DNA of 64,000 nt, from assembly GCF_035084215.1 (NCBI RefSeq), contig NC_090348.1:6076001-6140000 (forward strand), given 5' to 3'. Every line of letters starts with the position of its first letter. Positions within the stretch are counted from its first letter, which is position 1. The notes beneath the pieces were generated by a model, which saw only the letters and a program-made list of their open reading frames with translations, did not search any database and was not told the DNA's origin. This DNA is from Heptranchias perlo (Eukaryota). Position numbers and translations under genes: made by a program. Positions 17,641-64,000 of this stretch are shown here, piece by piece.

Positions 17641-17940
17641 AGCACCGATTGGCACCCATTCCCAAAAGAGTGCAGGGTGGCTGATATTGGAAAAGAAAAT
17701 GTCATGGATTTACTTTAGGGGCACTGTCCTGGAAGCTAGAACTAAGGAACCCTGCTGACAGTGAAGAAAGACCTCACATGGTATGGCTGATCGGGAGATC
17801 GCCTATGCTGGAGCTAATTGGAGAGCTGTGGTGTAGCGGACCGGGAGAGCTATGATACACTTATTGCAAAATTTCCTATGGTTTAGATGATCGGGAGGTC
17901 ACCAATGGCATAGCTAGATCTGTTATGGTATAGCTGATCT

Positions 17941-18543
17941 CGGGAGATCACCTGTGGTGTGGCTGATCGGGAGATCACCTGTGGTGTGGCTGATCGGGAG
18001 ATCACCTGTGGTGTGGCTGATCGGGAGATCACCTGTGGTGTGGCTGATCGGGAGATCACCTGTGGTGTGGCTGATCGGGAGATCACCTGTGGTGTGGCTG
18101 ATCGGGAGATCACCTGTGGTGTGGCTGATCGGGAGATCACTTGTGGTGTGGCTGATCGGGAGATCACCTGTGGTGTGGCTGATCGGGAGATCACCTGTGG
18201 TGTGGCTGATCGGGAGATCACCTGTGGTGTGGCTGATCGGGAGATCACCTGTGGTGTGGCTGATCGGGAGATCACCTGTGGTGTGGCTGATCGGGAGATC
18301 ACCTGTGGTGTGGCTGATCGGGAGATCACCTGTGGTGTGGCTGATCGGGAGATCACCTGTGGTGTGGCTGATCGGGAGATCACCTGTGGTGTGGCTGATC
18401 GGGAGATCACCTGTGGTGTGGCTGATCGGGAGATCACCTGTGGTGTGGCTGATCGGGAGATCACCTGTGGTGTGGCTGATCGGGAGATCACCTGTGGTGT
18501 GGCTGATCGGGAGATCACCTGTGGTGTGGCTGATCGGGAGATT
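17941..18543. repeat. 27-bp minisatellite, about 22 near-perfect copies (cgggagatcacctgtggtgtggctgat) with degenerate flanking copies
   Basis: Direct reading; one substitution near 18141; degenerate units extend to ~17779 and ~18625. Confidence 0.97.
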
Positions 18544-19957: not shown

Positions 19958-20632
19958 CTTTTTTTCTATTCGTTCATGGGATGTGGGCGTCGCTGGCGAG
20001 TCCAGCATTTATTGCCCATCCCTAATTGCCCTTGAGAAGGCGGTGGTGAGCCGCCTTCTTGAACTGCTGCAGTCCGTGTGGTGACGGTTCTCCCACAGTG
20101 CTGTTAGGAAGAGAGTTCCAGGATTTTGACCCTGCGACGATGAAGGAACGGCGATATATTTCCAAGTCAGGATGGTGTGTGACTTGGAGGGGAACATGCA
20201 GGTGGTGGTGGTGTTCCCATGTGCCTGCTGCCCTTATCCTTCTAGGTGGTAGAGATCGCGGGTTTGAGAGGTGCTGTCGAAGAAGCCTTGGCGAGTTGCT
20301 GCAGTGCACCCTGTGGATGGTGCACACTGCAGCCACAGTGCGCCGGTGGTGAATGGAGGGAATGTTTCGGGTGGTGGATGGGGTGCCAATCAAGCAGGCT
20401 GCTTTGTCCTGGATGGTGTCGAGCTTCTTAAGTGTTGTTGGAGCTGCACTCATCCAGGCAAGTGGAGAGTATTCCATCACACTCCTGACTTGTGCCTTGT
20501 AGATGTTGGAAAGGCTTTGGGGAGTCAGGAGTTGAGTCACTCGCCACAGAATAGCCAGCCTCTGACCTGCTCTTGTAGCCACAGTATTTATATGGCTGGT
20601 CCAGTTAAGTTTATGGTCAATGGTGACCCTCA
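19958..20632 (-). mobile_element. 3' fragment of LINE family B (CR1/L2-group; ORF2 ends HHLLKGN*)
   Basis: ORF MATRAGQRL...LLKGN and tail gggcaattagggatgggcaataaatgctgg...aatagaaaaaaa. Confidence 0.9.
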
Positions 20633-21034
20633 GAATGGTGTGGTTTTAAGTGCTTTTTGCACTGCTTTACAGAAAGACCAGTGCTATACATGGCCGTAAC
20701 CAAACTTTACTTGTTGGACCGAGACACTGCTCACTTAGTATTTCTACCACTTGTAGATTTTAAAATTTGTTTTAATATACTTTTCTTTAAAAGGAATTGC
20801 TGGATGTGCTTTTATTGGAAAGCCTAGAAGGACAGGGATAGCTTTCTTCCTCCCTCATTGTTATGGTCGATCTCTCTTCAGTAAAGGAAATTAGTCGTGC
20901 TGTATTGATTTTACTTTTCTCTTTGCTCCCTCACTCCCACTGGTCTCCGTAAGCTATGGCACTATCGTGAGCAGGCAGATAACCTCCTTCAACATATTCA
21001 CTAGCGCCAGTGTGACCTGCATGACACGTCGAGG

Positions 21035-22490
21035 GCGCCATAGCCTAGTGGTTATAATACTGGAGCAATAACCCAGAAGACATGGGTTTAAAACTTACTA
21101 TGGCATGTTGTGAAATTGAATTTAATAAATCTAGTAATTAATGGGCTGGCATTAGAAAAAATGACAATGAAGCTGCTGTTTTGTTGTAAAGACCCAACTG
21201 GTTGACTTGATATCCTTCAGGGAAGGGAAACTTCCACCCCTACATGGTCTGGCCTGCACGTGACTCCAGTCAATTGAAGTCAATGGGAATCAGGGGGAAA
21301 ACTCTCCAGTGGCTGGAGTCATACCTAGCACAAAGGAAGATGTTAGTGGTTGTTGGAGGCCAATCATCTCAGCCCCAGGACATTGCTGCAGGAGTTCCTC
21401 AAGGCAGTGTCCTAGGCCCAACCATCTTCAGCTGCTTCATCAATGACCTTCCCTTCATCATAAGGTCAGAAATGGGGATGTTCGCAGATGATTGCACAGT
21501 GTTCCGTTCCATTCGCAACCCCTCAAATAATGAAGCAGTCTGAGCCCGCATGCAGCAAGACCCCGGACAACATCTAGGCTTGGGCTGATAAGTGGCAAGT
21601 AACATTGGTGCCAGACAAGTGCCAGGCAATGACCATCTCCAACCAGGGAGAGTCTAACCACCTCCCCTTGACATTCAACGGCATTACCATCGCCGAATCC
21701 CCCACCATCAACATCTTGGGGGTCACCATTGACTAGAAACTTAACTGGACCAGCCATATAAATACTGTGGCTACAAGAGCAGGTCAGAGGCTGGGTATTC
21801 TGCGGCGAGTGACTCACCTCCTGACTCTCCAAAGCCTTTCCACCATCTACAAGGCACAAGTCAGGAGTGTGATGGAATACTCTCCACTTGCCTGGATGAG
21901 TGCAGCTCCAACAACACTCAAGAACCTCGACACCATCCAGGACAAAGCAGCCTGCTTGATTGGCACCCCATCCACTACTCTAAACATTCACTCCCTTCAC
22001 CACCGGCGCACAGTGGCTGCAGTGTGTACCATCCACAGGGTGCACTGCAGCAACTCGCCAAGGCTTCTTCGACAGCACCTCTCAAACCCGCGACCTCTAC
22101 CACCTAGAAGGACAAGAGCAGCAGGTACATGGGAACAACACCACCTGCACGTTCCCCTCCAAGTCACACACCATCCCGACTTGGAAATATATCACCGTTC
22201 CTTCATCGTCGCTGGGTCAAAATCCTGGAACTCCCTTCCTAACACCACTGTGGGTGAACCTTCACCACATGGACTGCAGTGGTTCAAGAAGGCGGCTCAC
22301 CACCACCTTCTCAAGGGCAATTAGAGATGGGCAATGAATGCTGGCCTCGCCAGCGACGCCCACATCCCATCAACGAATAGTAAAAAAAAAAGTCCCATAC
22401 TATGTGTTTGACTCTTAATGGCCTCACAGCAACTAGAAATGGGAAATAAATGCTGCCTTGTTGGTGTCACCCACATCCTAAGAAAAATAT
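21035..22490 (+). mobile_element. tRNA-headed SINE (21035-21270 and 22391-22490) interrupted by a 5'-truncated LINE family B copy (21271-22390)
   Basis: RT motifs [10 protein letters not shown] and MFADDCTV, poly-A end; the SINE body resumes after the poly-A, with agtc at both junctions. Confidence 0.85.
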
Positions 22491-27588: not shown

Positions 27589-28724
27589 TTATTTTTTGGA
27601 TTGCAGCTCATAAGGAGGAGGGAGTTGATATTTTGGTGGCTCGGATTGTAAATTAGGCAGCCTGATGCGGGATGGTGTATTGTGTTGTATGTTACTGGGT
27701 GTTAAGTCTGCTCTGTGCAGTTGATGAGGAAGTTTTACCCACAGCTGCGATGGCGGGGGCACCTCAGGAATGAACATGGGTGGCTTTCTCGGTCTTAGTG
27801 CGTGCATCTCTAAGTGGTGACTACGTGCAGTTGGTCGGTTTTCTTGAAAGCTCAGTACTTCAGAGGGGAGGATCTTTTCTGAGTATCTGCAGAAGCAATA
27901 GATCGTAACTAATAAGGCAATTAGAAGAATAAGAAGCAACACTGTGAGAATGGTAGGCCAGATGGTCGTCAGCAAGTAAGAGCTGTGAGATTGAATGATC
28001 GTAGTACTCAGATCTGCTGTGGGCATTGTAGACAGGCAGGCTCCACCATAAGTGACATTCTCAACTGTTTGAATTCGGTACTCTGGTAACATCGTCTCAA
28101 CAAAAGATGGATGTGCACGGCCATCTGGCAAACGGATTAGTTTGAACAACTTTTCAATAGTACTCGTTGGACATTCCTTTAAAACGCCTTTGCTTGCTGA
28201 ACACAAGGAATTGTTGTACCACGATACTAGTGTGGAACCTGGTTTTATGGAGAAGAGGACAATGTCCTCACTGCTCGAGTCATTCAGATACTTAGCAAGT
28301 TTTTCTAGGAAGTAGACCACTCTTCCTCTATCTCGAAGAAAAGAATTGTAACTGTTTTTTGTTCTGACTGTGTACAAGTGGCAGGGCGTGTAATGTGATA
28401 GCCGGAGTTCAATCACAAAACCTTCTTGAACAACAAGTCCACCTGAATCAGTAGCAGTCAAGACAAATTCTTGTGGTGAGTATTGATAGTCTGTCTCCAG
28501 TGGATACCCAAACAGAGTTTTCCGCGATTGATTAAATCTCACCCAAGACTCTTTTCCTGAAGGGGATCCATCGACTGAAGCTACTGTCAGAGTTAAGTTT
28601 CTGGCATTTCCGTCTTCTTGATCAAAAAATGTGTGTGCAGGTACAGAATAATGAAATCTTTGTCCTACAGTTGCCAAGATGAATTCAATTGGGTTGATTA
28701 CAATTGGAGACTTGTTGGCCTGCC
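27589..28724 (-). CDS. Dystroglycan-like gene, terminal coding exon 5: second cadherin-like domain, SEA module (G|S), TM helix, cytoplasmic tail ending PPKYQLPPPYELQSKK*
   Basis: tttag|GG acceptor, phase 1; TFFDQED, SWVRFN, ATDSGGL, IKPG|STLVSWYNNSL, CP...GAC, TM helix and PPPY all parallel the DAG1 alpha C-terminus and beta subunit. Confidence 0.93.
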
Positions 28725-28984
28725 CTAAAGGACAGTGCAAAAAAAAATAAAATGTGATTAGTATTGCAAATACCGTTCCGTAATTAACAATTATCACTAT
28801 TTCCATTTATTGTGCCACAGATTATTAGCTAGTCCCTGAAACTGACTACACCACTCCTGATCTTAGCTGAGAAACTGAAGGGAAGCCCAGTGGTTTCCAG
28901 CGCAGGGAGGATGGTAAAATCTGAGACTTTCAGTGCCATTATATGCCAATTTTGTATCAGTGCCAAGTCATGTCTGGTGTAATA

Positions 28985-29330
28985 AAACAGAAAATGATGG
29001 AAATACTTAGCAAGTTAAGCAGTATCTGAAGAAAGAAACAGTTAGTGTTTCAGGTCGAAGACCTTTCGTCAGAACTGGAAGATGTTAGAGTTAACAGTTT
29101 TTAAGCAAGTACACAGCCAGGGAAGAGGAGGAGAGGAAAGAACAAAAGGGAAGTCTGTGATGGGATGGAGGGCAGGAGTGATTAAATGATGATAAAAGAG
29201 TGATGAGCGGTCTTCGACCTGAAACGTTAACTCTGTTTCTTTCTCCACAGATGCTGCCTGACTTGCTGAGAATTTCCAGCATTTTCTGTTTTTATTTCAG
29301 ATTTCCAGCATCCACAGTATTTTGCTTTTG
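28985..29330. mobile_element. Penelope-derived inverted-repeat element (second family) with hammerhead-like cores
   Basis: aaaacagaaaatg.tggaaa...gtttcaggtcgaagacc is mirrored by ggtcttcgacctgaaac...tttccagcattttctgtttt. Confidence 0.6.
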
Positions 29331-30512
29331 ATTTAGTGTATGTTGACGCAAGAGTGGAAGTGTAACTCGAGGAAGGCAATCTGACTCCAGTGTGTTGAAA
29401 CTAGAAGCTGCAAGGCCACGTTTAGCAGATAATCTCCTACCAGCTGGGCTTTACACCAGGTGTAGAATCACTCCAGCCAAGAGCAAAGCATTTGAAATTA
29501 ACCAACTGGGAGGCGAGCATTGGCAGTACATTTGCTGTGCACGGGTAGGAGCAACCGGCAGCATAGCCTGGGTCTGCCACCTGTGAACCTCAATGTACAG
29601 ATCGTAAACCATTATCTGTAACACCACAATTAGTCACACTCAGTTGGTCTCTTACAAATCCTTGAAATCAACTCAAGAGCAGTATTAATGGAAACCTGGG
29701 AGCATGTTTGTGTCTGCCTATTGGCTGGAGAATAGTGTAGGGTGTGAGGGGAGGAAGGGACAAGTAAAAGAGCAAAAAGAATGGCTAATCAGTAATAGAA
29801 AGTGACCGGGCAAAATATGGTATCGTTCCAGCCATTAATTGCATGTACTGTTGCCTCCATATGAACTATAACTTTGTGCTGGCAGTTTTTCTCTACGTTA
29901 CGATGACAGATGTTTCCAAGGAAACAGCTACTTGCATCAGGGAAGAAAATGGTAAGAACTGGAAAGAATATCTGTTTTATTAAATATCTGTGGCATTGAT
30001 CATGCTGAATCAGGGGATGTGCTGTTTTGAATTGGGGTATACAAAGTACGGACATCTTTGTGGGCGAGGGAACCTGAAGACAACAACTCTGGTGGTGTGT
30101 GGGGCCCAGCACGACACAATTGAATGACTGAATGAAGGGATAATGGTGTAAGGTTCTGCACACTGGTTAAAGATATAGTACAGCAATATTGCACTACATC
30201 ACACAGATGTTCACAAGACTTTTAATAATAGTGATGGATTTCACCGTTCGGTACCTGAGACAGCCAGTTCAATTTAGGTTTATGATAAGCCTTCCAAAAT
30301 GCAAAAGGACTTAGAATTCAAGACTCATTATTCCTGAATTATGCAGCAATATTACATAACAGAATAATAGTGTGCAAAAGATTGTGAAGTTATAGCCAAC
30401 TGTAAAAGATAAGATGGAGCATAATGAATCGCATTCATTGCAATGCTGTAAGTTGCATTAAGTAGAGTGATATAAAACTGATGCATGATAAGGTAATTAC
30501 GTTGTACCTTAC

Positions 30513-32531
30513 CATTGTACTCTGAGGCAGGTATTTCAAGGGTAGATGAAATCTTCTTTGTGTCCTTGGGGCTCAGACTTTCAATTATAGTTGTTTGAGA
30601 GGAACTTGGAATCTTCGTGAACGTATCCTGAGAAGTCCAACTTTTGAAGGCATGTGTTTCTTGTATTAATACTGAGTGAACTGGTGCTGTAATTGATTGA
30701 CTTGACCAGTATGTGAATACTAGACTTTCGTCAAAACTAAAAGTAGGGATGCTGAGGCTTGACTGGCTGGGTATTAAGATGTTTAATATGCTGGATACTT
30801 GAAACTGTTCTGTGTGATTGTAACTGTCTTGCCAAATGCCAATCTTGTTGACTGACATTGCATTCATTGAATACTGACTGATTTGATGTGTGTTAGTAGA
30901 GGATATTGTGGAATAGAATAAATGTGACCCAAAGGAATGAAACAAACTTTCAGGTAACGGTATGGTCTGTTGCAAAGATGAGATGAAGTATGACAACTCT
31001 GTAGATACAATATAATGGCTAAAAAATGGCTGTGAAGTGGGATATCTTAAGTCCACCTGGGATGAGAATGATGGCATGAGAGATGGTAGGCTATCATTCT
31101 GTGTCATTAAGGTAGTAATAGGCATTCTTGCATTGTCACTGTATGCCTCAAATACACCAACAGATGTTTTTAGCTCATTGGATGGAACTGAAGAGCTGAA
31201 AGTCTCAGTGAAATTAATTGATGGCAGAATATCTGTAAACGAAGGTGGAAAACTGATGGAATCACCCTGGCTGAACTGATTTTTAACTTGCCTGAATGAC
31301 TGTAAACTGGTAAGAGGATCTTGAACTGTGGACAGAAAAGAAAATTCAGGTAATGGAGAAGTAGGAGACATTGTGAAGGTGGACAGCATAAGATCCTTTC
31401 TGACTGATGAGTAGGATGTAACAGTCACAGAAGACCATACGAGTTTGGTGGCTGAGTGAGAGACCAAGAGTGAATATGGTGTGCGATCCACTGCTGTAAG
31501 AGAAGAAGTGATGAACCTTGAGTGGTGTAATAGTATATGGCCATCGATGGATGAATTTAAAGGATTAATAGAGTCCCGACTAGATTGGTTTTCTTGGAAT
31601 GAGTGTGAATACATGGGAATCATTGAATGGGTAGACAGCACTGGATGTTCTTGAAAAGAAATAGAAGGAACGTGTGATTGTTTGATTGATTGCTTTACAA
31701 TTTCTCCAATTGATAGAGAAGATACAGTTTCAAAAGAGTAAAAGAAAATTGAGGTGAGAATCAACTGATCAGAGATGTATGTGGTAGTGAGAAAGTTAGC
31801 TGTTTGTGTGTCAAAAGAGGACAAAATAACTTTATTAGGATAAGAAAAAGATTGTGACTGAGGATAAAACATAGTGCCTGATTTGACAGAATATAAGGTA
31901 GACTCTGAAAGCTTTCTGTCTGAACTAAGTAACAAAATATTTGTAGCCATTAATTCAGGTTTGATTGTATGTACTGAAATGGGTTCTGATGAGCTTTGTA
32001 AGTGTGCTGGTGTACTTAGTGTGCTAGGTGAGATGGTAAAAATGTTGGGTGCTAATAGATAACTTGTGCCAGTAATTTCCTCGCTGCTGCCATTAAATAA
32101 CAAACTTGTTTGAATATCGCTTATATTGGTAAATGCAAACGGTAGGCTTGGTGACATGTCAATTTTCTGTGTCGCATAAAATAAACTTTTCATGGCTCTT
32201 GAAGCTAGCCCTGTTGACCAAAGTGTACTGTCCATTGAGTGGAAAGACAAGTCGTCTTTGGTTAGCTTTATGCTCGAGGCATCTGTGACCAGCATCCCTG
32301 TAGAAAGTGATTTCTCCACGTTGATATATGTTGTCAACTGGGAAATTGGCATAAGGCTACTTGGTAAAGGTGAAGCATCGGAGAACAGCTGGGTGTGTTC
32401 TGACAAAAGGTGTAAAGGACTGACCAGATTGAGACTTGTTTCAACCTTGGCATCTGATTCAGAACTGTATCTTTTGTCATCCATGGTGGATTTGATGAAA
32501 CCAGTGTTGTCTTCAGTTGCTGTATACATCT
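30513..32531 (-). CDS. Dystroglycan-like gene, coding exon 4: 673-codon Ser/Thr-rich mucin-like exon
   Basis: Polypyrimidine tract then aacag|AG acceptor, G|gtaagg donor, 2019 nt open frame, phase 1-1, consistent with both flanking exons. Confidence 0.82.
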
Positions 32532-36845: not shown

Positions 36846-38527
36846 TTTTTTTTTTATTCGTTCACGGGACGTGGGCGTCGCTGGCGAGGCCAGCATTTCT
36901 TGCCCATCCCTAATTGCCCTCGAGAAGGTGGTGGTGAGCCACCTTCTTGAACCGCTGCAGTCCGTGTGGTGACGGTTCTCCCACAGTGCTGTTAGGAAAG
37001 GAGTTCCAGGATTTTGACCCAGCGACAATGAAGGAACGGCGATATATTTCCAAGTCGGGATGGTGTGTGACTTGGAGGGGAACGTGCAGGTGGTGTTGTT
37101 CCCATGTGCCTGCTGCTTTTGTTCTAGGTGGTAGAGGTCGCGGGTTTGGGAGGTGCTGTCGAAGAAGCCTTGGCGAGTTGCTGCAGTGCATCCTGTGGAT
37201 GGTACACACTGCAGCCACAGTGCGCCGGTGGCGAAGGGAGTGAATGTTTAGGGTGGTGGATGGGGTGCGAATCAAGCGGGCTGCTTTATCTTGGATGGTG
37301 TCGAGCTTCTTGAGTGTTGTTGGAGCTACACTCATCCAGGCAAGTGGAGAGTATTCCATCACACTCCTGACTTGTGCGTTGTAGATGGTGGAAAGGCTTT
37401 GGGGAGTCAGGAGGTGAGTCACTCGCTGCAGAATACTCAGCCTCTGACCTGCTCTCATAGCCACAGTATTTATATGGCTGGTCCAGTTAAGTTTCTGGTC
37501 AATGGTGACCCCCAGGATGTTGATGGTGGGGGATTCGGCGATGGTAATGCCGTTGAATGTCATGGGGAGGTGGTTAGACTCTCTCTTGTTTGAGATGGTC
37601 ATTGCCTGGCACTTATCTGGCGCGAATGTTACTTGCCACTTATGTTGTCCAGGTCTTGCTGCATGCGGGCTCAGACTGTTTCATTATTTGAGGGGTTGCG
37701 AATGGAACTGAACACTGTGCAGTCATCAGCGAACATCCCCATTTCTGACCTTATGATGAAGGGAAGGTCATTGATGAAGCAGCTGAAGATGGTTGGGCCT
37801 AGGACACTGCCCTGAGGAACTCCTGCAGCAATGTCCTGGGGCTGAGATGATTGGCCTCCAACAACCACTACCATCTTCCTTTGTGCTAGATATGACTCCA
37901 GCCACTGGGGAGTTTTCCCCCTGATTCCCATTGACTTCAATTTTACTAGGGCTCCTTGATGCCAGGATCGGTCAAATGCTGCCTTGATGTCAAGGGCAGT
38001 CACTCTCACCTCACCTCTGGAATTCAGCTCTTTTGTCCATGTTTGGACCAAGGCTGTAATGAGGTCTGGAGCCGAGTGGTCCTGGCGGAACCCAAACTGA
38101 GCATCGGTGAGCAGGTTATTGGTGAGTAAGTGCCGCTTGATAGCACTGTCGACGACACCTTCCATCACTTTGCTGATGATTGAGTGTAGACTGATGGGGC
38201 GGTAATTGGCCGGATTGGATTTGTCCTGCTTTTTGTGGACAGGACATACCTGGGCAATTTTCCACATTGTCGGGTAGATGCCAGTGTTGTAGCTGTACTG
38301 GAACAGCTTGGCTAGAGGCGCAGCTAGTTCTGGAGCACAAGTCTTCAGCACTACAGCTGGGATGTTGTCGGGGCCCATAGCCTTTGCTGTATCCAGTGCA
38401 CTCAGCCGTTTCTTGATATCACGTGGAGTGAATCGAATTGGCCGAAGACTGGCTTCTGTGATGGTGGGGATATCGGGAGGAGGCTGAGATGGATCATCCA
38501 CTCGGCACTTCTGGCTGAAGATGGTTC
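36846..38527 (-). mobile_element. 5'-truncated LINE family B copy (RT plus 3' tail)
   Basis: ORFs 37671..38501 ([29 protein letters not shown]) and 36910..37602; poly-A end. Confidence 0.92.
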
Positions 38528-38642: not shown

Positions 38643-40225
38643 CTAATAAACTTGTGTTCAGATGAATCGTTGAAAGAGAGCTAAAGGCATTGTAAATATC
38701 CTGGGATTTTGTCATTTTTTGAGGAGAAGCATAGGTATTTGATAGAAACAGCAGAGATCTGAGTATATGATCACCAGAAGCCAATGAATTTACCGTAAGT
38801 GCTGTTGTGGTACCAACAAATATTGAGGAATGGATGGGAGGAGTGCGTAATGGAGAAGTTAGTTTCGTACTGATGACTGATGAATGACTGTAGAGAGTTG
38901 GGAGAGGAAGTAAGTACTTAGGACTATCAGTCATGCTATAACTATGCAGAGCTTTAACTGATGAAGTCTCCACCTTGTAATATTGGTTAGTGCTAGTGAT
39001 GATGGCCAAGACTGTTGGTGCCATTTTATCCAAAATGGGTGTACCAAACGTGTTCAGTGCAGTCAGTAGGGTAGTTTCGTCAAATAGTGATGACATTGAT
39101 GAAGATAGTATGTTTGGGCTGGCAGTAACAGTAAACTGTTCAGTCAGCTGAGGTTGTATGATGGCTATAGAGGAGGTCTGGGTAGCGGAAGTGAGAACTG
39201 TTGGAATTATGCTTTGAATCCCCTTTGTTACAAACTCAGTAACCACTGTTGGAGTAGGTGACAGTTGTGACTGTTGCGCAATTCTGAGAGATGAAGTACC
39301 AAGGAGAAAATAACTTGAGGGTTCAAGCACAGGGAAACTTGGGAACATTGACTCCATCTCTGATTTAGCCAAGAGCACATGTGAAGTTTGTGTGTCTAAT
39401 GACGTTACAGGTTTTGATGGCAGCGTAAATAAGGGTAAAAGTTTGGTCGTTTCTAAAACAGACTTCATTGCAAGTGAGGTTGGTGGTGGGAATGAGAGCA
39501 CAAAGCCAGAGAAACTGCTCAAGTAAATCTCTGTGAAATTAATGGATGCTTTGAGTTGAACAGAAGTGAATGAGGTTCTGAACGGGGAGCTTTGTTGCCT
39601 TTTCGGGGACGTTGGGATGCCTGACGCTGTAGTTTGTACATCCCATCTGTCCTGCTCGGTTGCAGAATCCAGTTTTGAATAGTCTATGTTTGACGTGAAA
39701 GTTTTGGTAAAGATCTGGGTAAGTATTGTAGGCTCAGGTCTGATTAAGTAGGTTGGTTTAGGTGGTGTCATTGCAGGTGTTGGTGAAACCATTAAAACTT
39801 GGCGCCGGTTCCTTTGAAGATGCATGATCTTTTTTCCTTTTCTCAATACCCTCCAGCCTGAAATATGCCATCCTAAATACTGTGAAATATGACCGGAGAA
39901 GACATTATGATTCAAAACCTGACTGAGTTCCTGCAACATCCCAAAGCTCCCGCAGCTGATAGGCCAATAGATTTCTACCGCTTCTCTGTCCGTAGAACTC
40001 CTGTTGCCGGCTTCAGAAGCCAAAATATGGATCATCTTCGGTTTAAGATTCGTCATATCCCTGAATGGGCATAGTGTTAATAAAAATGGATCTGTACGTA
40101 GATACTCAGCCATGGATAGGACGAGAGATATGCGACTGCTCGCTCCTAAAGAGTTGATCTTGGCCTGGAGGATAACACCTGCGTAAACGGTGGGACCATC
40201 TGCTGTACATCCTCTTAAGTGAAAG
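38643..40225 (-). CDS. Dystroglycan-like gene, coding exon 3: S6-like domain, furin site RNRR, start of mucin region
   Basis: ttcag|C acceptor, G|gtaagt donor, 1583 nt, phase 2 to 1; CTADGP..VIL, WPISC and SQYLGWHISGWRV parallel DAG1 CAADEP..VIL, WKLGC and SAQLGYPVVGWHI; followed by ~385 S/T/P-rich residues. Confidence 0.9.
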
Positions 40226-43730: not shown

Positions 43731-46700
43731 TTTATTATTATTCGTTCATGGGATGAGGGCGTTGCTGGCGAGGCCGGCATTTATTGCCCATCCCTAATTG
43801 CCCCTGAGAAGGTGGTGGTGAGCCGCCTTCTTGAACTGCTGAAGTCCGTGTGGAGAAGATTCTCCCACAGTGTTGTTAGGAAGGGAGTTCCAGGATTTTG
43901 ACCCAGCGACGATGAAGGAACGGCGATATATTTCCAAGTCGGGATGGTGTGTGACTTGGAGGGGAACGTGCAGGTGGTGTTGTTCCCATGTAGCTGCTGC
44001 TCCTGTCATTCTAGATTTGAGGAGGTCGTGGGTTTGGGAGGTGCTGTCGAAGAAGCCTTGGCGAGTTGCTGCAGTGCATCCTGTGGATGGTACACACTGC
44101 TGCCACAGTGCGCCGGTGGTGAAGGGAGTGAATGTTTAGAGTAGTGGATGGGGTGCCAATCAAGCGGGCTGCTTTGTCCTGAATGGTGTTGAGCTTCTTG
44201 AGTATTGTTGGAGCTGCACTCATCCAGGCAAGTGGAGAGTATTCCATCACACTCCTGACTTGTGCCTTGTAAGTGGTGGAAAGGCTTTGGAGAGTCAGGA
44301 GGTGAGTCACTCTCCACAGAATACCCAGCCTCTGACCTGCTCTTGTAGCCCTAGTATTTATATGGCTGGTCCAGTTAAGTTTCTGGTCAATGGTGACCCC
44401 CAGGATGTTGATGGTGGGGGATTCGGTGACGGTAATGCCGTTGAATGTTAAGGGGAGGTGGTTAGACTCGCTCTTGTTGGAGATGGTCATTGCCTGGCAC
44501 TTGTCTGGCACGAATGTTAATTGCCACTTATCAGCCCAAGCCTGGATGTTGTCCAGGTCTTGCTGCATGCGGGCTCGGACTGCTTCATTATTTGAGGGGT
44601 TGCGAATGGAACTGAACACTGTGCAATTGTCAGCAAACATTCCCATTTCTGACCTTATGATGGAGGGAAGGTCATTGATGAAGCAGCTGAAGATGGTTGG
44701 GCCTAGGACACTGCCCTGAGGAACTCCTGCAGCTATGTCCTGGGGCTGAGATGATTGGCCTCCAACAGCCACTACCATCTTCCTTTGTGCTAGGTATGAC
44801 TCCAACCACTGGAGAGCTTTCCCCCTGATTCTCATTGACTTCAATTTTACTAGGGCTCCTTGGTGCCACACTCGGTCAAATGCTGCCTTGATGTCAAGGG
44901 CAGTCACTCTCACCTCACCTCTGGAATTCAGCTCTTTTGTCCATGTTTGGACCAAGGCTGTAATGAGGTCTGGAGCTGAGTGGTCCTGGCAGAACCCAAA
45001 CTGAGCATGTTATTGGTGAGTAAGTGCCGCTTGATAGCATTGTCGACGACACCTTCCATCACTTTGCTGATGATTGGGAGTAGACTGATGGGGCGGTAAT
45101 TGGCTGGATTGGATTTGTCCTGCTTTTTGTGGACAGGACATACCTGGGCAATTTTCCACATTGTCGGGTAGATGCCAGTGTTGTAGCTGTACTGGAACAG
45201 CTTGGCTAGAGTCGCAGCTAGTTCTGGAGCACAAGTCTTCAGTGCTACAGCCGGGATGTTGTCAGGGCCCATAGCCTTTGCAGTATCCAGTGCACTCAGC
45301 CGTTTCTTGATATCATGTGGAGTGAATCAAATTGGCTGAAGACTGGCTTCTGTGATGGTGGGGATATCGGGAGGAGGCTGAGATGGATCATCCACTGGGC
45401 ACTTCTGGCTGAAGATGGTTGCAAACGCTTCAGGCTTATCTTTTGCACTCACGTGCTGGACTCCGCCATCGTTGAGGATGGGGATGTTCACGAAGCCTCC
45501 TCCTCCTGTTACTCGTCCACCACCATTCATGACTGGATGTGGCAGGACTGCAGAGCTTTGATCTGATCCATTGGTTGTGGAATCGCTTAGCTTTGCCTAT
45601 AGCATGTTGCTTCCGCTGTTTTAGCTTGCATGTAATCCTGTATTGTACCTTCACCAAGTGGGCAACTCATTTTTAGGTACACCTGGTGCTGCTTCTACAC
45701 TCCTCATTGAACCAGGGTTGATCCCCTGGCTTGTTGGTAATGGTAGAGTGAGGAATATGCCGGGCCATGAGGTTACAGATTGTGCTGGAATACAATTCTG
45801 CTGCTGCTGATGGCCCACAGTGCCTCATGGATGCCCAGTTTTGAGCTGCTAGATCTGTTCTGAATCTATTCCATTTAGCACGTTGGATGGTGTTCTCAGT
45901 GTGAAGACAGGACTTTGCCTCCATAAGGACTTGTACGGTGGTCACTCCTACCGATACTGTCATGGACAGATGTATCTGCGACAGGTAGATTGGTGAGGAC
46001 GAGGTCAGTCGGTTTTTCCCTCGTGTTGGTTCGCTCACCACCTGCCGCAGTCCCAGTCTGGCAGCTATGTCCTTCAGGACTTGGTCAGCTGTGGTGCTAC
46101 TGAGCAACTCTTGGTGATGGACTTTGTACTGTGGGTGGGGGACTTCATTTTGTGCTCTTACTACCCTGAGTGCTTCCTCCAAGTGGTGCTCAACATGGAG
46201 GAGGACTGATTCATCAGCTGAGGGTGGGTGATAGGTGGTTTCCTTGCCCATGTTTGACCTAATATCGTGAGATTTCATGGGGTCCAGAGCCCATGTTGAG
46301 GACTCCCAGGGCCACTCCCTCCTGACTGTATATCACTGTACCGCCACCTCTGGTGGGTCTGTCCTGCCTGTGGGACAGGACATACCCAGGGATGGTGATG
46401 GAAGAGTCTGGGACATTGGCAGAAAGCTATGATTCTGTGAGTATGGCTATGTCAGGCTTGACTAGTCTGTGGGACAGCTCTCCAATTTTGGCACAAGTCA
46501 AAGATGTTGTTGAGGACTTTGCAGGGTCAACTGGGCTTGGTTTGCCTTTGTCGTGTCCGGTGCCTAGTGGCCCGTCTGGATTTATTCTTATTATGACTTT
46601 TTGTAGTGGGATTGTACAACTGAGTGGCTTGCTAGGCCGTTTCAGAGGGCAGTTAAGAATCAATCACATTGCTGTGGGTCTGGAGTTACACATAGTAACT

Positions 46701-50159: not shown

Positions 50160-52070
50160 GAGAATCATAGAAAGGTTACAGCACAGAAGGAGGCCATTCA
50201 GCCCATCGAGTCCGCGTGGGCTCTATGCAAGAGCAATCCAGCTAGTCCCACTCCCCCACCCTATCTCCGTAGTCCTGCAATTTTTTTCCTTTCAAATACT
50301 TATCCAGTTCCCTTTTGAAAGCCATGATTGAATCTGCCTCCACCACCCCCTCGGACAGTGCATTCCAGATCCTAACCACTCGCTGTGTAAAAAAGTTTTC
50401 CCTCATGTCACCTTTGGCAAAAGAACCAATCACCTTAAATCTATGTCCTCTGGTTCTTGACCCTTCTGCCAATGGGAGCAGTTTCTCTCTATCTACTCTG
50501 TCCAGACCCTTCATGATTTTGAATACCTCTATCAAATCTCCTCGCAGCCGTCTCTGTTCCAAGGAGAACAACCCCATCTTCTTCAGTCTATCCACGTAAC
50601 AAAAGTCCCTCATCCCTGGAATCATTCTAGTAAATCTCTTCTGCACCCTCTCTAAGGCCTTCACATCTTTCCTAAAGTGCAGTGCCCAGAACTGGACACA
50701 ATATTCCAGTTGTGGTCGAACCAGTGTTTTATAAAGATTCATCTTGACTTCCATACTTTTGTACTCTATGCCTCTATTTATAAAGCCCAGGATCCCGTAT
50801 GCGTTTTTTAACTGCTTTCTCAACCTGCCCTGCCACCTTCAACAATTTGTGCAGATAAACCCCCAGATCTCTTTGTTCCTGTACCCCTTTTAGAGTTGTG
50901 CCCACTAGTTTATATTGCCTCTCTTTGTTTTTCCTACCAAAATGTATCACTTCGCATTTTTCTGCGTTAAATTTCATCTGCAACGTGTCAGCCCATGCCA
51001 CCAGCCTGTCTATATCCTCTTGAAGTCTATCACTATCCTCCTCGCTGTTTACTACCCTTCCCATGTTTTGTGTCACCTGCAAATTTTGAAATTGTGCCCT
51101 GTACACCCAAGTCCAAGTCATTAATATATATCAAGAAAAGCAGTGGTCCCAGCACCGACCCCGGGGGAACACCACTGTACACCTCCCTCCAGTCCGAAAA
51201 ACAACCGTTCACCACTATTCCCCATTTCCTATCCCTTAGCCAATTCTGTATCCATGTTGCTACTGCCCCTTTATTCCATGGGCTGCAATCTTCATGATAA
51301 GCCTACCGTGCGGCACTTTATCAAACGCCTTTTGAAAGTCCACATACACCACATCAACTGAAGTGCCCTCATCTACCCTCTCTGTTACCGCATCAAAAAA
51401 ATCTATCAGGTTAGTTAAACACGATTTGCCTGTAACAAATCCATGCTGCTTTCCCCAATCAATTCATACTCATCCAAGTGACTGTTAATTCTGTCCAAGA
51501 TTATCGTTTCTAAAAGTTTCCCCACCACTGAGGTTAAACAGACTGGCCTATAATTGCTGGGTTTATCCTTACACCCTTTTTTGAACAAGGGTGTAACATT
51601 TGCAATTCTCCAGTCCTCTGGCACCACCCCCGTATCTATGGATGTTTGGAAGACTATGGCCAGCACCTCTGCAATTTCCACCCTTACTTCCCTCAGCAAC
51701 CAAGGATGCATCCCATCCGGACTGGGTGACTTATCTACTTTAAGTACAGCCAGCCTTTCTAGTGCCTCTTCTTTATCAATTTTTAGCCCATCCAGTATCT
51801 CAACTACATCTTCCTTTTTTGTAAAGAAAGAGACTCTGGCAGCATCTTCTTCCTTTGTATAGGCAGATGCAAAGTACTCATTTAGTACCTCAGCCATCCC
51901 CTCTGCCTTCATGAGTAGATCTCCTTTATGGTCCCTAATCGGCCCATCCCTCCTCTTACTACCCGTTTACTGTTTATATGCCTGTAGAAGACTTTTGGAT
52001 TCCCTTTTCATGTTGGCCGCCAGTCTATTCTCATATACTTTCTTTGCCCTTGCTATTTTCTTTTTCACTT
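50160..52070 (-). mobile_element. 5'-truncated CR1 LINE
   Basis: ORFs 51415..51912, 50774..51121 and 50242..50823 carry CR1 RT and C-terminal motifs. Confidence 0.92.
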
Positions 52071-52072
52071 CC

Positions 52073-55000
52073 ATAGAATCATAGCATGGTTATAGCACAG
52101 AAGGAGGTCATTCGGCCCATTGAGCCTGTGCCGGCTCTTTGTAACAGCAATCCAGTTAGTCCTGATCCCCTGCTCTTTCCCCATAGCCCTGCAATTTATT
52201 TCCCTTCAAGTATTTATCCAATTCCTTTTTGAAAGCCACGATTGAATCTGCTTCCACCACCCGTTCAGGCAGCGCATTCCAGATCATAACGACTCACTGC
52301 GTAAAAAAGTTTTTCCTTGGTTTTTTTGCCAATTACCTTGAATCTGTGTTCTCTGGTTCTCGACCCTTCTGCCAATGGGAACAGTTTCTCTTTATTTACT
52401 TTATCTAAACCCTTCATGATTTTGAACACTTCTATCAAATCTCCTCTCAACCTTCTCTGCTCTGAGAACAACCCCAGCTTCTCCAGTCTATCTACATAAC
52501 TGAAGTCCCTCATCCCTGGAACTATTCTAGTAAATCTTTTCTGCACCCTCTCTAAGGCCTTCACATCCTTCCTAAAGAATTAGGACACAATGCTGCAGTT
52601 TTGGCCAAACCAGTGTTTTATAAAGGTTCAACATAACTTCCTTGCTTTTATACTCTATGCCTCTATTTCTAAAGCCCAGAATCCTGTATGCCTTTTCAAC
52701 CTGTTCTGCCACTTACAAAGATTTGTGCACATATACCCTCAGGTCTCTGTTCCTGCACCCCCTTTAGAATTGTACCATTTAGTTTATATTGTCTCGCCTC
52801 ATTTTTCCTGCCAAAAGGTATCACTTCGCACTTCTCTGAGTTAAATTTCATCTGCCATGTGTCTGTCCATTCCACCAATGTCCTCTTGAAGTCTATCTCT
52901 ATCCTCCTCACTGTTTATTACACTTCCAAGTTTTGTGTCATCTGCAAATTTTGAAATTGTTCCTTGTACACCCAAGTCCAAGTCATTAATATATATCAAA
53001 AAAAGCAATGGTCCCAGCACCGACCCCTGGGAAACACCACTGTATATCTTCCTCCAGTCCAAAAAAACAACCATTCACCACTACTCTCTGTTTCCTGTCA
53101 TTTATCCAATTTTGTATCTATGCTGCTACTGCCCCTTTTATTCCATGGGCTTCAATTTTGCTGACAAGCCTATTATGTGGCACTTTGTCAAACACTTTTT
53201 GAAAGTCCATATACACCACATCAGCCACATTGCCCTCATCAACCCTCTCTGTTACCTCATCAAAAAACTCAATCAAGTTAGTTATACACGATTTGCCTTT
53301 AACAAATCCGTGCTGGCTTTCCTCAGTTAATCCACACTTGCCCAAGTGACTATTAATTTTGTTCTGGATTATCATTTCTAAAAATTTCCCCACCACCGAG
53401 GTTAAACTGACTGGCCTGTAGTTGCTGGGTTTATCCTTACACCCTTTTTTGAACAGGGGTGTAACATTTGCAATTCTCCAGTCCTCTGGCACCACCCCCA
53501 TATCTAAGGAGGATTGGAAGATTATGGCCAGAGCCTCTGCAATTTCCATCCTTACTTCCCTCAGTAACCTAGGATGCATCCCATCGGACCGGGTGACTTA
53601 TCTACTTTAAGTACAGTCAGCCTTTCTCTTTATCGATTTTTTAGCCCATCCAGTATCTCAACTATATCTTCCTTTACTGAGACTGTGGCAGCATCTTCTT
53701 CCTTGTTAAAGACAGATGCAATGTACTCATTTAGTACCTCAGCCAGGCCCTTTGCCTCCATGCGTAGATCTCCTTTTTGGTCCCTAATCGGCCCCACCCC
53801 TTCTCTTACTACTCATTTACTATTTATATGCCTATTGAAGACTTTTGGATTCCCTTTTATATTGGCCACCAGTCTATTCTCTTACTCTCGCTTTGCCCCT
53901 CTTATTTCTTTTTTCATTCTCCTCTGTACTTTCTATATCCAGCCTGGTTCTCACTTGTATTATCAACTTGACATCTGTCATACGCCCCCTTTTTCTGCTT
54001 CATCTTATTCTCTATCTCTTTCATCATCCAGGGAGCTCTGGTTTTAGTTGCCCTACCTTTCCCCCTTGTGGGAATGTACATAGACAGTACCCGAACCATC
54101 TCCTCTTTAAAGACCGCCCATTGTTCGATTACAGTTTTGCCTGCCGATCTTTGCTTCCAATTTATCCGGGCCAGACCCGTTCTCAACTTACTGAAATTGG
54201 CCCTCCTCCTTTAAGTATTTTTACTCTAGATTGCTCCTTGTCCTTTTCTATAACTAATCTAAACCTTATGATACTACGATCACTGTTCCCTAAATGTTCC
54301 CCCACTGACACTTGCTCCACTTGGCCCACCTCATTCCCCAGGACTTGATCTAACAATGCGTCCTTCCTCGTTGGGCCGGAAATATACTAATCAAGAAAGT
54401 TCTCCTGAACACACTTCAGAAATTCCTCCCCCTCTTTTCCCTTTACACTATTACTGTCCCAGTCTATATTAGGGTAGTTGAAGTCCCCCATTATCACTAT
54501 TCTATAGTTCTTGCACCTCTCTGTAATTTCCCTGCAAATTTGCTCCTCTATATCCTTCCACTAGTTGGTGGCCTATAGAATTCACCCAGTAGTGTAATGG
54601 CGCCTCTATTGTTTCTTAACTCTAACCAAATAGATTCTGTCCTTCACCCCTCAAGTACATCCTCTCTCTCCAGCACTGCAATATTCTCCTTGATCAATAC
54701 TGCCACCCCCCCTCCTTCTTTCCCTTCCCTATCTTTCTGAACACTGTGTATCCAAGAATATTTAATACCCAATCCTGTCCTTTTTTGAGCCAGGTCTGTT
54801 ATCACCACAACATCATATTCCCATGTGGCTATTTGCCCCTGCAGCTCACCAACATTATTTACCACACTTTGTGCGTTTACACACATGCACTCTAAACCAG
54901 TCTTAGACCTTCTCGTATTCTCTGTCTGTCTGATCCCACCTAATACTGTACTATTTCTTACTCCAGTGCTATCTGTCTCTCCCAATTCTTTGTGCACCTT

Positions 55001-63284: not shown

Positions 63285-63650
63285 TTTTTTTATTCATTCT
63301 CAGGATGTGGGCATCGCTGGCAAGGCCGGTCTTTATTATCCATCCCTAGTTGCCCTTGAGATTGCAACAACAGATGAGAGTCAACCACGTTGGTGTGGGG
63401 CTGAAGTCACATATAGGCCAGACTGGGTAAGGACGGCGGGTTTCTTTCCCTAAGGGGCATTAGTGAACCAGTTGGGTTTTTACAACAATCTGACAGCTTC
63501 ATGGTCACTTTTACTGATACCAGTTTTTTTTAAAGACTGAATTCAAATTCTCAAACTGCCATGGGATTTTAACTAAAATTGTGTGGATTATTAATCCAGG
63601 CCTCTGGATGACTAGTCCAATAACATAACCACTACACTACTGTACCTATT
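63285..63650 (-). mobile_element. tRNA-headed SINE carrying the 3' tail of LINE family B
   Basis: Head and body match 46620-46950; tail ctcaagggcaactagggatgg...gccagcgatgcccacatcc matches the family B 3' end. Confidence 0.8.
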
Positions 63651-63772
63651 ATTAATCCAGGCCTCTGGATGACTAGTCCAATAACATAACCACTACACTA
63701 CTGTACCTATTATTAATCCAGGCCTCTGGATTACTAGTCCAATTTCATAACCACTACATACTGTACCTATTA
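63589..63772. repeat. 61-bp tandem triplication of the SINE tRNA head
   Basis: ttaatccaggcctctgga... recurs at 63591, 63652 and 63713. Confidence 0.9.
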
Positions 63773-64000
63773 TTCAAAAAGTGTCTCATTTCAGTTTGGT
63801 TTTATTTTCTAATTCCCAGAACTCCCAGTGAAGTCCTTTTTCTTCACAACTTCTTTCACCAGATGGCTTTGCATTCACTTTGAAGCACAGATGAAATTTG
63901 CATGTCCTTTTCACTTTACATAAGAACATCAGAAAGAGGAGCAGGAGTAGGCTATTCGGCCCCTTCAATAAGATCATGGCTGATCTTCTACCTCAACTCC

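Follow-up and report, generated by a model that had tools for sequence, protein, structure and literature searches.

Is α-dystroglycan the only protein that carries matriglycan? The question is raised by a gene in a 64,000-nucleotide stretch of the Heptranchias perlo genome (NC_090348.1, forward-strand positions 6,076,001 to 6,140,000; hereafter the window), which a first-pass annotation proposed as a second natural matriglycan carrier and laminin receptor, α-dystroglycan being otherwise the only well-established one. That premise stands for native tissue, in which α-dystroglycan is described as the sole carrier (PMC4453867, accessible sections). It does not extend to LARGE2, which can modify proteoglycans, glypican-4 among them, with laminin-binding glycan (PMC5137251, accessible sections). 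The reading proposed here is that the locus is a second gene of the dystroglycan family, spliced and separate from DAG1, and that its product is predicted to undergo the maturation of prodystroglycan and to receive matriglycan on a [ST]PTP sequence behind its furin site; taken as a whole, this reading has about an even chance of being correct. The gene belongs to a real, conserved second dystroglycan subfamily that is apparently undescribed. No paper on such a subfamily was found in the literature searched, a scope that excluded most subscription journals and supplements, where gene lists may mention it, and the database names of its members are automatic (dystroglycan-like, mucin-like, uncharacterized).

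The gene lies on the minus strand and has five coding exons with canonical splice ends, which form a single open frame of 5256 bases with zero stops and encode a 1751-aa product. Exon 1 (55916-55644; aa 1-91) contains the ATG, a hydrophobic likely signal peptide and the start of Ig1, and closes on a GT donor. It ends in phase 0 between YK and V, the position of the dystroglycan IG1 intron, which falls between LK and I in the DAG1 of the same shark and between K95 and V96 in human DAG1 (PMC5216574, accessible sections). Exon 2 (40898-40654; aa 92-172; AG/GT ends) supplies the remainder of Ig1, and exon 3 (40225-38643; aa 173-700) encodes the S6-like domain, the furin site, the acceptor motif and the first half of the mucin. 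The Ser/Thr-rich mucin continues through exon 4 (32531-30513; aa 701-1373; open frame, AG/GT ends), and exon 5 (28724-27589; aa 1374-1751) carries Ig2, the SEA module, the membrane helix and the tail. DAG1, in contrast, has two coding exons.

Transcript evidence comes from contigs of probable RNA runs, their RNA status being a guess, from a related organism that is 95-99% alike; no run listed with matching contigs is on record as RNA. Junctions 1/2, 2/3 and 3/4 were found in these contigs. In run X1, a loose contig end agrees with the last part of exon 1 at 29 of 30 bases, exon 2 is covered and joined to exon 3 at 40225, a contig stops exactly at 30513, and exon 5 is covered from 28723 downward; in run X3, a contig with a loose end joins exon 3 to exon 4. 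Runs X2 and X4 (99% alike) offer short pieces only, one of them extending beyond the acceptor. Among the joints listed for these contigs there is no direct exon 4-exon 5 joint; this junction is used by the database models of Pristiophorus and Heterodontus, both of which read ASEYNGQ(A/D)NKSP. An alternative exon 3 acceptor at 40213, giving 1747 aa, was rejected because the X1 joint lies at 40225. One X1 contig joins to exon 5 a 132-base piece of intron 4 (28856-28987, minus strand), which lacks AG/GT ends in the window, contains stops and is not a clean exon.

Other features of the window may be recorded here. A possible alternative last exon with GT..AG boundaries (30311-30399, minus strand) lies 113 bases into intron 4 and would yield a 1402-aa form with a hydrophobic tail in place of Ig2, SEA and membrane helix; a depth calculation on one X1 contig is consistent with some 90 bases at this place, the joint itself being outside those listed. 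Intron 4 also holds a short, very abundant SINE-like repeat (29200-29330) matched by thousands of contigs. Frames of broken LINE-type reverse transcriptase/endonuclease, as judged from translations, occupy introns and flanks (36900-38525, 44011-46332, 20022-22324 and 50242-54300). Tandem repeats occur at 17940-18542 (27-base unit, 22.3 copies, 99% matches) and 63587-63774 (61-base unit, 3.1 copies).

The sequence on which the first-pass annotation rested, RNRR↓QVLMVSPTP (the arrow marks the predicted furin cut), was confirmed at 39813-39775 on the minus strand, within a 548-codon open frame; translation of 39813-39766 on that strand gives RNRRQVLMVSPTPAMT. As the annotation held, the furin site, the following Gln and the PTP of DAG1 are kept, with a one-residue insertion and Thr317 changed to Ser. 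The predicted furin site RNRR (aa 311-314; 39802-39813) aligns with RVRR/RIRR of DAG1 and is the sole R-x-[KR]-R in the 1751 residues. Behind it, the spacer QVLMV and SPTP (39775-39801; SPTP, aa 320-323, at 39786-39775) make up the candidate core-M3/matriglycan acceptor, in which Ser320 and Thr322 correspond to DAG1 Thr317 and Thr319. When the ectodomain was shuffled 5000 times, no shuffle placed [ST]PTP 4-5 residues behind a furin site (a furin site alone appeared in 525, [ST]PTP alone in 822); since this composite pattern was drawn up post hoc, more weight attaches to the homologous position. RxRxxIxxTPT, the strict POMGNT2 consensus, is absent from the window. Unlike DAG1, the protein has no conserved second site of the Thr379 type, and its only TPT (aa 497) is missing in Pristiophorus.

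The rest of the protein shows the whole dystroglycan layout, in the domain order of vertebrate DAG1: signal peptide, Ig1-S6 prodomain, furin site, mucin, Ig2-SEA with its Gly-Ser, membrane helix and PPxY tail. Exon 5 matches the Pfam families DAG1 (E 1.7e-11) and He_PIG (E 3.6e-6), both above cut-off, exon 3 reaches a_DG1_N2 below cut-off (E 0.032), and exons 1 and 2 alone have no match in Pfam. In a PDB search, the exon 3 region aligned with rabbit α-dystroglycan 9c3c_A, RIRRQIHATPTP, at E 2e-4. The cysteine pair that the first-pass annotation saw in the N-terminal domain is present (39952-40209, minus strand): Cys179 in GCTAD (40209-40207) and Cys264 in WPISC (39954-39952) both align with the S6 cysteines of DAG1. 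Both are found in 31 of 60 family rows, many of which are partial, and in lizards and snakes the second is replaced by Phe. The position of DAG1 Thr192 is changed, to Gly in the shark protein and Glu in 36 of the 60 rows. Because the prodomain of the window protein is split over three exons, the orthologous prodomain of Heterodontus was modelled instead, from an alignment of 36 rows that contained paralogues only. The model (pLDDT 79) found α-dystroglycan N-terminal structures as all of its top six Foldseek matches (including 1u2c/5llk; E ~1e-18; TM 0.66-0.67 by query), which predicts an α-dystroglycan N-terminal fold for the prodomain of the second dystroglycan.

Downstream, the mucin spans 1050 aa (180 aa in DAG1), is 31% Ser+Thr, dominated by Ser, and contains no Cys. 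Gly-Ser stands at the predicted α/β autocleavage site, SIKPG↓STLVSW (28234-28239, minus strand), a pattern that 47 of 50 family rows share. It is followed by a predicted membrane helix (aa 1632-1650; 27895-27951; hydropathy peak 3.07) and by a tandem PPxY, PPKYQLPPPY, in the cytoplasmic tail (27610-27639); PPxY occurs in 48 of the 50 rows and YxLPP in 47. The Y-x-x-PPPY spacing of the tail is shared with DAG1, but the shark tail lacks the juxtamembrane KKRKGK run and extends beyond PPPY, whereas DAG1 ends in PPPYVPP.

Orthologues were found in sharks, chimaera, sturgeon, paddlefish, gar, bowfin, teleosts, coelacanth, turtles, birds, lizards and snakes. A homologue search with exon 3 found just two of 205 candidates; the ESM Atlas gave sarcoglycan and dystroglycan clusters and nothing specific to the family. 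No amphibian appeared among the named matches, for which 30 names from one large search were looked up, and this is not evidence of loss. Motif conservation was scored in 50 rows (the window and 49 homologues), of which 43 were scorable and 24 are birds and so non-independent. Conservation among orthologues, the check that the first-pass annotation had itself named, held: Ser/Thr-Pro occupies the Thr317 position in all 43 scorable rows, 40 of them with DAG1 spacing, and the sequence reads TPTP in 30, SPTP in three and TP followed by other residues in ten. The motif is thus genuine and conserved, the shark has a deviant form of it, and most bony-vertebrate orthologues are closer to DAG1 than the shark is. 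TPTP is found in all three gar rows, all five turtle rows and 22 of 24 bird rows, and in none of 11 lizard rows, ten of which have lost the second Thr (TPRP, TPRL, TPGL). Snakes have neither a dibasic/furin site nor the second Thr, and in the three sturgeon and paddlefish models the motif region is missing. Among later matches, coelacanth has RQRR↓QLMLTPTP, bowfin RARR↓QIIQTPTP and chimaera RHRR↓QVIMVSPTP, and percomorphs have KVKR...TPTP in two cases and APAP in one.

In a DAG1 control of 120 rows, 115 of them scorable, TPTP was found in 111, SPTP in none and a canonical furin site in all 115; a canonical furin site occurs in 25 of the 43 rows of the second family and in seven of its 24 birds. 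Strict RxRxxIxxTPT occurs in 56 of 115 DAG1 rows and in none of the 43 rows of the second family, 14 of which match once I/L/V is permitted; bowfin P0199, judged by eye, conforms to the strict form. Compared with nine bony-vertebrate orthologues, the shark PTP is 89% identical, S6 40%, Ig1 37% and the next 22 residues 13% (downstream stretches, 12-13%). Since the insertion and SPTP are common to all four cartilaginous fishes examined, from chimaera to sharks, they are a cartilaginous-fish trait.

By analogy with DAG1, POMT1/2 would O-mannosylate Ser320 and Thr322, and POMGNT2 would extend the mannose on the residue preceding Pro, Thr322-Pro323 being intact. LARGE1 would then dock on the contiguous prodomain and polymerize matriglycan, after which furin would remove the prodomain. 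Cleavage of the SEA module at Gly-Ser would give α and β chains, the roughly sixfold longer mucin would set the glycan at a great distance from the membrane, and WW-domain proteins may bind the PPxY tail. In the accessible sections of PMC8360118, POMGNT2 binds the TPT core, contacting both Thr, together with hydrophobic residues C-terminal of it; the upstream RXR is not essential, and Pro after the mannosylated Thr is proposed as needed. The shark motif keeps Thr322-Pro323 and a Pro/hydrophobic run (AMTPPKP), with Ser at the first site. LARGE1 requires a contiguous prodomain (PMC12514197, PMC9917425, accessible sections); its docking on the shark prodomain, which is only 25% identical to that of DAG1, is a prediction. 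Against matriglycan stand SPT in place of the contacted TPT, the changed Thr192 position (the Thr192 cleft determines matriglycan length; PMC12514197, accessible sections), the lack of a conserved second site, the decay of the motif in squamates and a furin site less widely kept than in DAG1. By judgement rather than computation, it is slightly favoured that at least one member of the family carries matriglycan; that the shark protein itself does so is possible, at somewhat less than an even chance.

The strongest competing explanation, which we consider rather unlikely though a serious contender, is that the product is a large membrane mucin, processed by furin and at the SEA module, that bears ordinary core M1 or GalNAc glycans and no matriglycan, its motif being kept for cleavage or for the start of O-mannosylation. 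KIAA1549 offers the precedent: it too is a type I membrane protein, large and O-glycosylated, with furin processing and an SEA module, and is O-mannosylated, with no core M3 evidence in the accessible sections of PMC13570299. It is not a dystroglycan-family protein in any comparison made here, and those sections claim no dystroglycan prodomain for it. The long, Ser-dominated mucin, unlike the Thr/Pro mucin of DAG1, would suit such a protein, as would the altered Thr192 position and the decay that the motif, unlike the conserved exon 5, has undergone in squamates and some teleosts. Against this reading, no stretch measured near the site is better conserved than PTP, which exceeds even the folded domains, and birds keep the furin site less strictly than TPTP (seven versus 22 of 24). 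The predicted fold and contiguity of the prodomain are also retained.

A matriglycan reading restricted to the TPTP forms of bony vertebrates, with the SPTP form of cartilaginous fishes carrying little, short or no glycan, is improbable. It draws on the confinement of Ser and insertion to four cartilaginous fishes, on the absence of SPTP from the 115 DAG1 rows and on the POMGNT2 contacts with both Thr of TPT (PMC8360118, accessible sections). Yet Thr322-Pro323 is intact, and chimaera and three sharks share SPTP(A/V)MTPPKPT with little or no change, which implies selection. The accessible sections of PMC11715199 and PMC12803454 do not mention Ser acceptors or a second dystroglycan.

Lastly, a reading of the locus as DAG1, as a recent duplicate or as a relic without expression is very improbable and largely refuted, since, for all that mammalian orthologues are truncated and the spliced contigs belong to a related organism and to runs of guessed RNA status, DAG1 lies elsewhere in the genome, the five-exon frame is free of stops and represented by spliced contigs, and the protein is 75% identical to the Pristiophorus model over its full length. 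The first-pass view of the gene as a dystroglycan paralogue distinct from DAG1 is thereby upheld. The true DAG1 of this shark (G000:C20, 51.97 Mb) matches a record named Heptranchias perlo dystroglycan at 100% identity, and the second protein shares 25% (N-module) and 28% (C-module) identity with it. The second gene lies on C27 between a Mat89Bb-family gene (L014:8368-8682, plus strand) and an IP3-receptor gene (L009:3793-3900, plus strand), which we take to be INTS13 and ITPR2, presumably adjacent on human 12p11; in the human genome the gene for sarcospan, part of the dystrophin complex, presumably follows on the far side of ITPR2. C20 holds DAG1, an ITPR and a zf-piccolo gene, and C27 the second dystroglycan, an ITPR and a zf-piccolo gene, which suggests, from these two families only, that they are paralogous chromosomes.

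In phylogenetic trees, the second dystroglycans form a clade of 21 rows (support 100/100) whose branching broadly follows the species tree, and DAG1 forms a separate clade (100/100). When both modules are used, amphioxus P0307 and Lineus (nemertean) P0242 join the family (98/96) under two models, and the AU test rejects a vertebrate-only clade of DAG1 and the family (p 0.00025 under LG+G4, 0.006 under a mixture model), in a tree that has long branches, Lineus among them, and samples neither lamprey nor hagfish. P0307 and P0242 share with the family the S6 signature W..(S/A)CG.F...HN...G and the extended PPxYxLPPPY tail, whereas eight of nine other invertebrate tails listed end in YVPP like DAG1. 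From the grouping, the AU rejection and these shared features, it follows that the duplication, and with it the second lineage, probably predates vertebrates. A simple whole-genome-duplication ohnologue of DAG1 fits the synteny and is rejected by the AU tests; it is kept as a lesser possibility because of the long branches and because lamprey, hagfish and any second amphioxus dystroglycan are missing. We infer that linkage of both genes on one ancestral chromosome, followed by differential loss, would reconcile tree with synteny. P0242, P0307 and P0306 are invertebrate proteins of the extended-tail, long-mucin type, and the amphioxus dystroglycan of earlier surveys may be of the second type rather than a DAG1 orthologue. 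The amphioxus "dystroglycan-like" P0307 and Lineus "mucin-2-like" P0242 differ from the vertebrate family in their long branches and their motifs (RRRR↓QAAGFATPMPTPT and RLKR↓AVNAASTPV).

Vertebrate dystroglycan duplicates have been reported in teleosts (DAG1a/DAG1b) and lamprey only, as copies of the same architecture with one extra mini-intron (PMC4582122, PMC5216574, accessible sections). These too are second dystroglycan genes in vertebrates, but teleost DAG1 rows are about 60-65% identical to shark DAG1, whereas the second family forms a clade of its own in which sharks are already represented; lamprey's duplicate lies outside the present dataset and is hence not placed relative to the family.

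In mammals the gene appears to have decayed. A first search (56 matches) contained no mammal and suggested loss, but later searches recovered dolphin and macaque models, so "decayed" is preferred to "lost". Dolphin P0204 (345 aa) corresponds to exon 5 only and its membrane helix is interrupted, macaque P0344 (567 aa) is without furin site or TPT and stops in the helix, and 291-aa records in the macaque cluster likewise end there. Across the mammalian remnants (P0204, P0344 and the P0205 cluster), some 270-290 exon 5 codons are open, at about 50% identity to the shark, and the break falls at the membrane helix. The models may be pseudogenes; either a recent loss or a secreted Ig2-SEA product could account for them.

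The old, separate dystroglycan subfamily is a larger point than the single motif, and one that the first-pass annotation overlooked. The fullest form of our proposal, which we advance tentatively and at somewhat less than an even chance, is that two dystroglycan genes have existed since before vertebrates, and that in sharks, holosteans, coelacanth, turtles and birds the one with the giant mucin would naturally carry O-mannose-linked matriglycan and act as a laminin/LG receptor, surviving in mammals as a truncated remnant. The gene bears on two open questions: why some 18 genes serve one substrate, and which rules govern the sites used by POMGNT2 and LARGE1. A natural paralogue at 25% identity with graded motifs (TPTP, SPTP, TPRP, none) makes those site rules testable. 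If the proposal is true, IIH6 may be staining more than DAG1 in non-mammalian models, chick among them, the history of the dystroglycan family needs revision, and the rule that only α-dystroglycan carries matriglycan would be a mammalian peculiarity.
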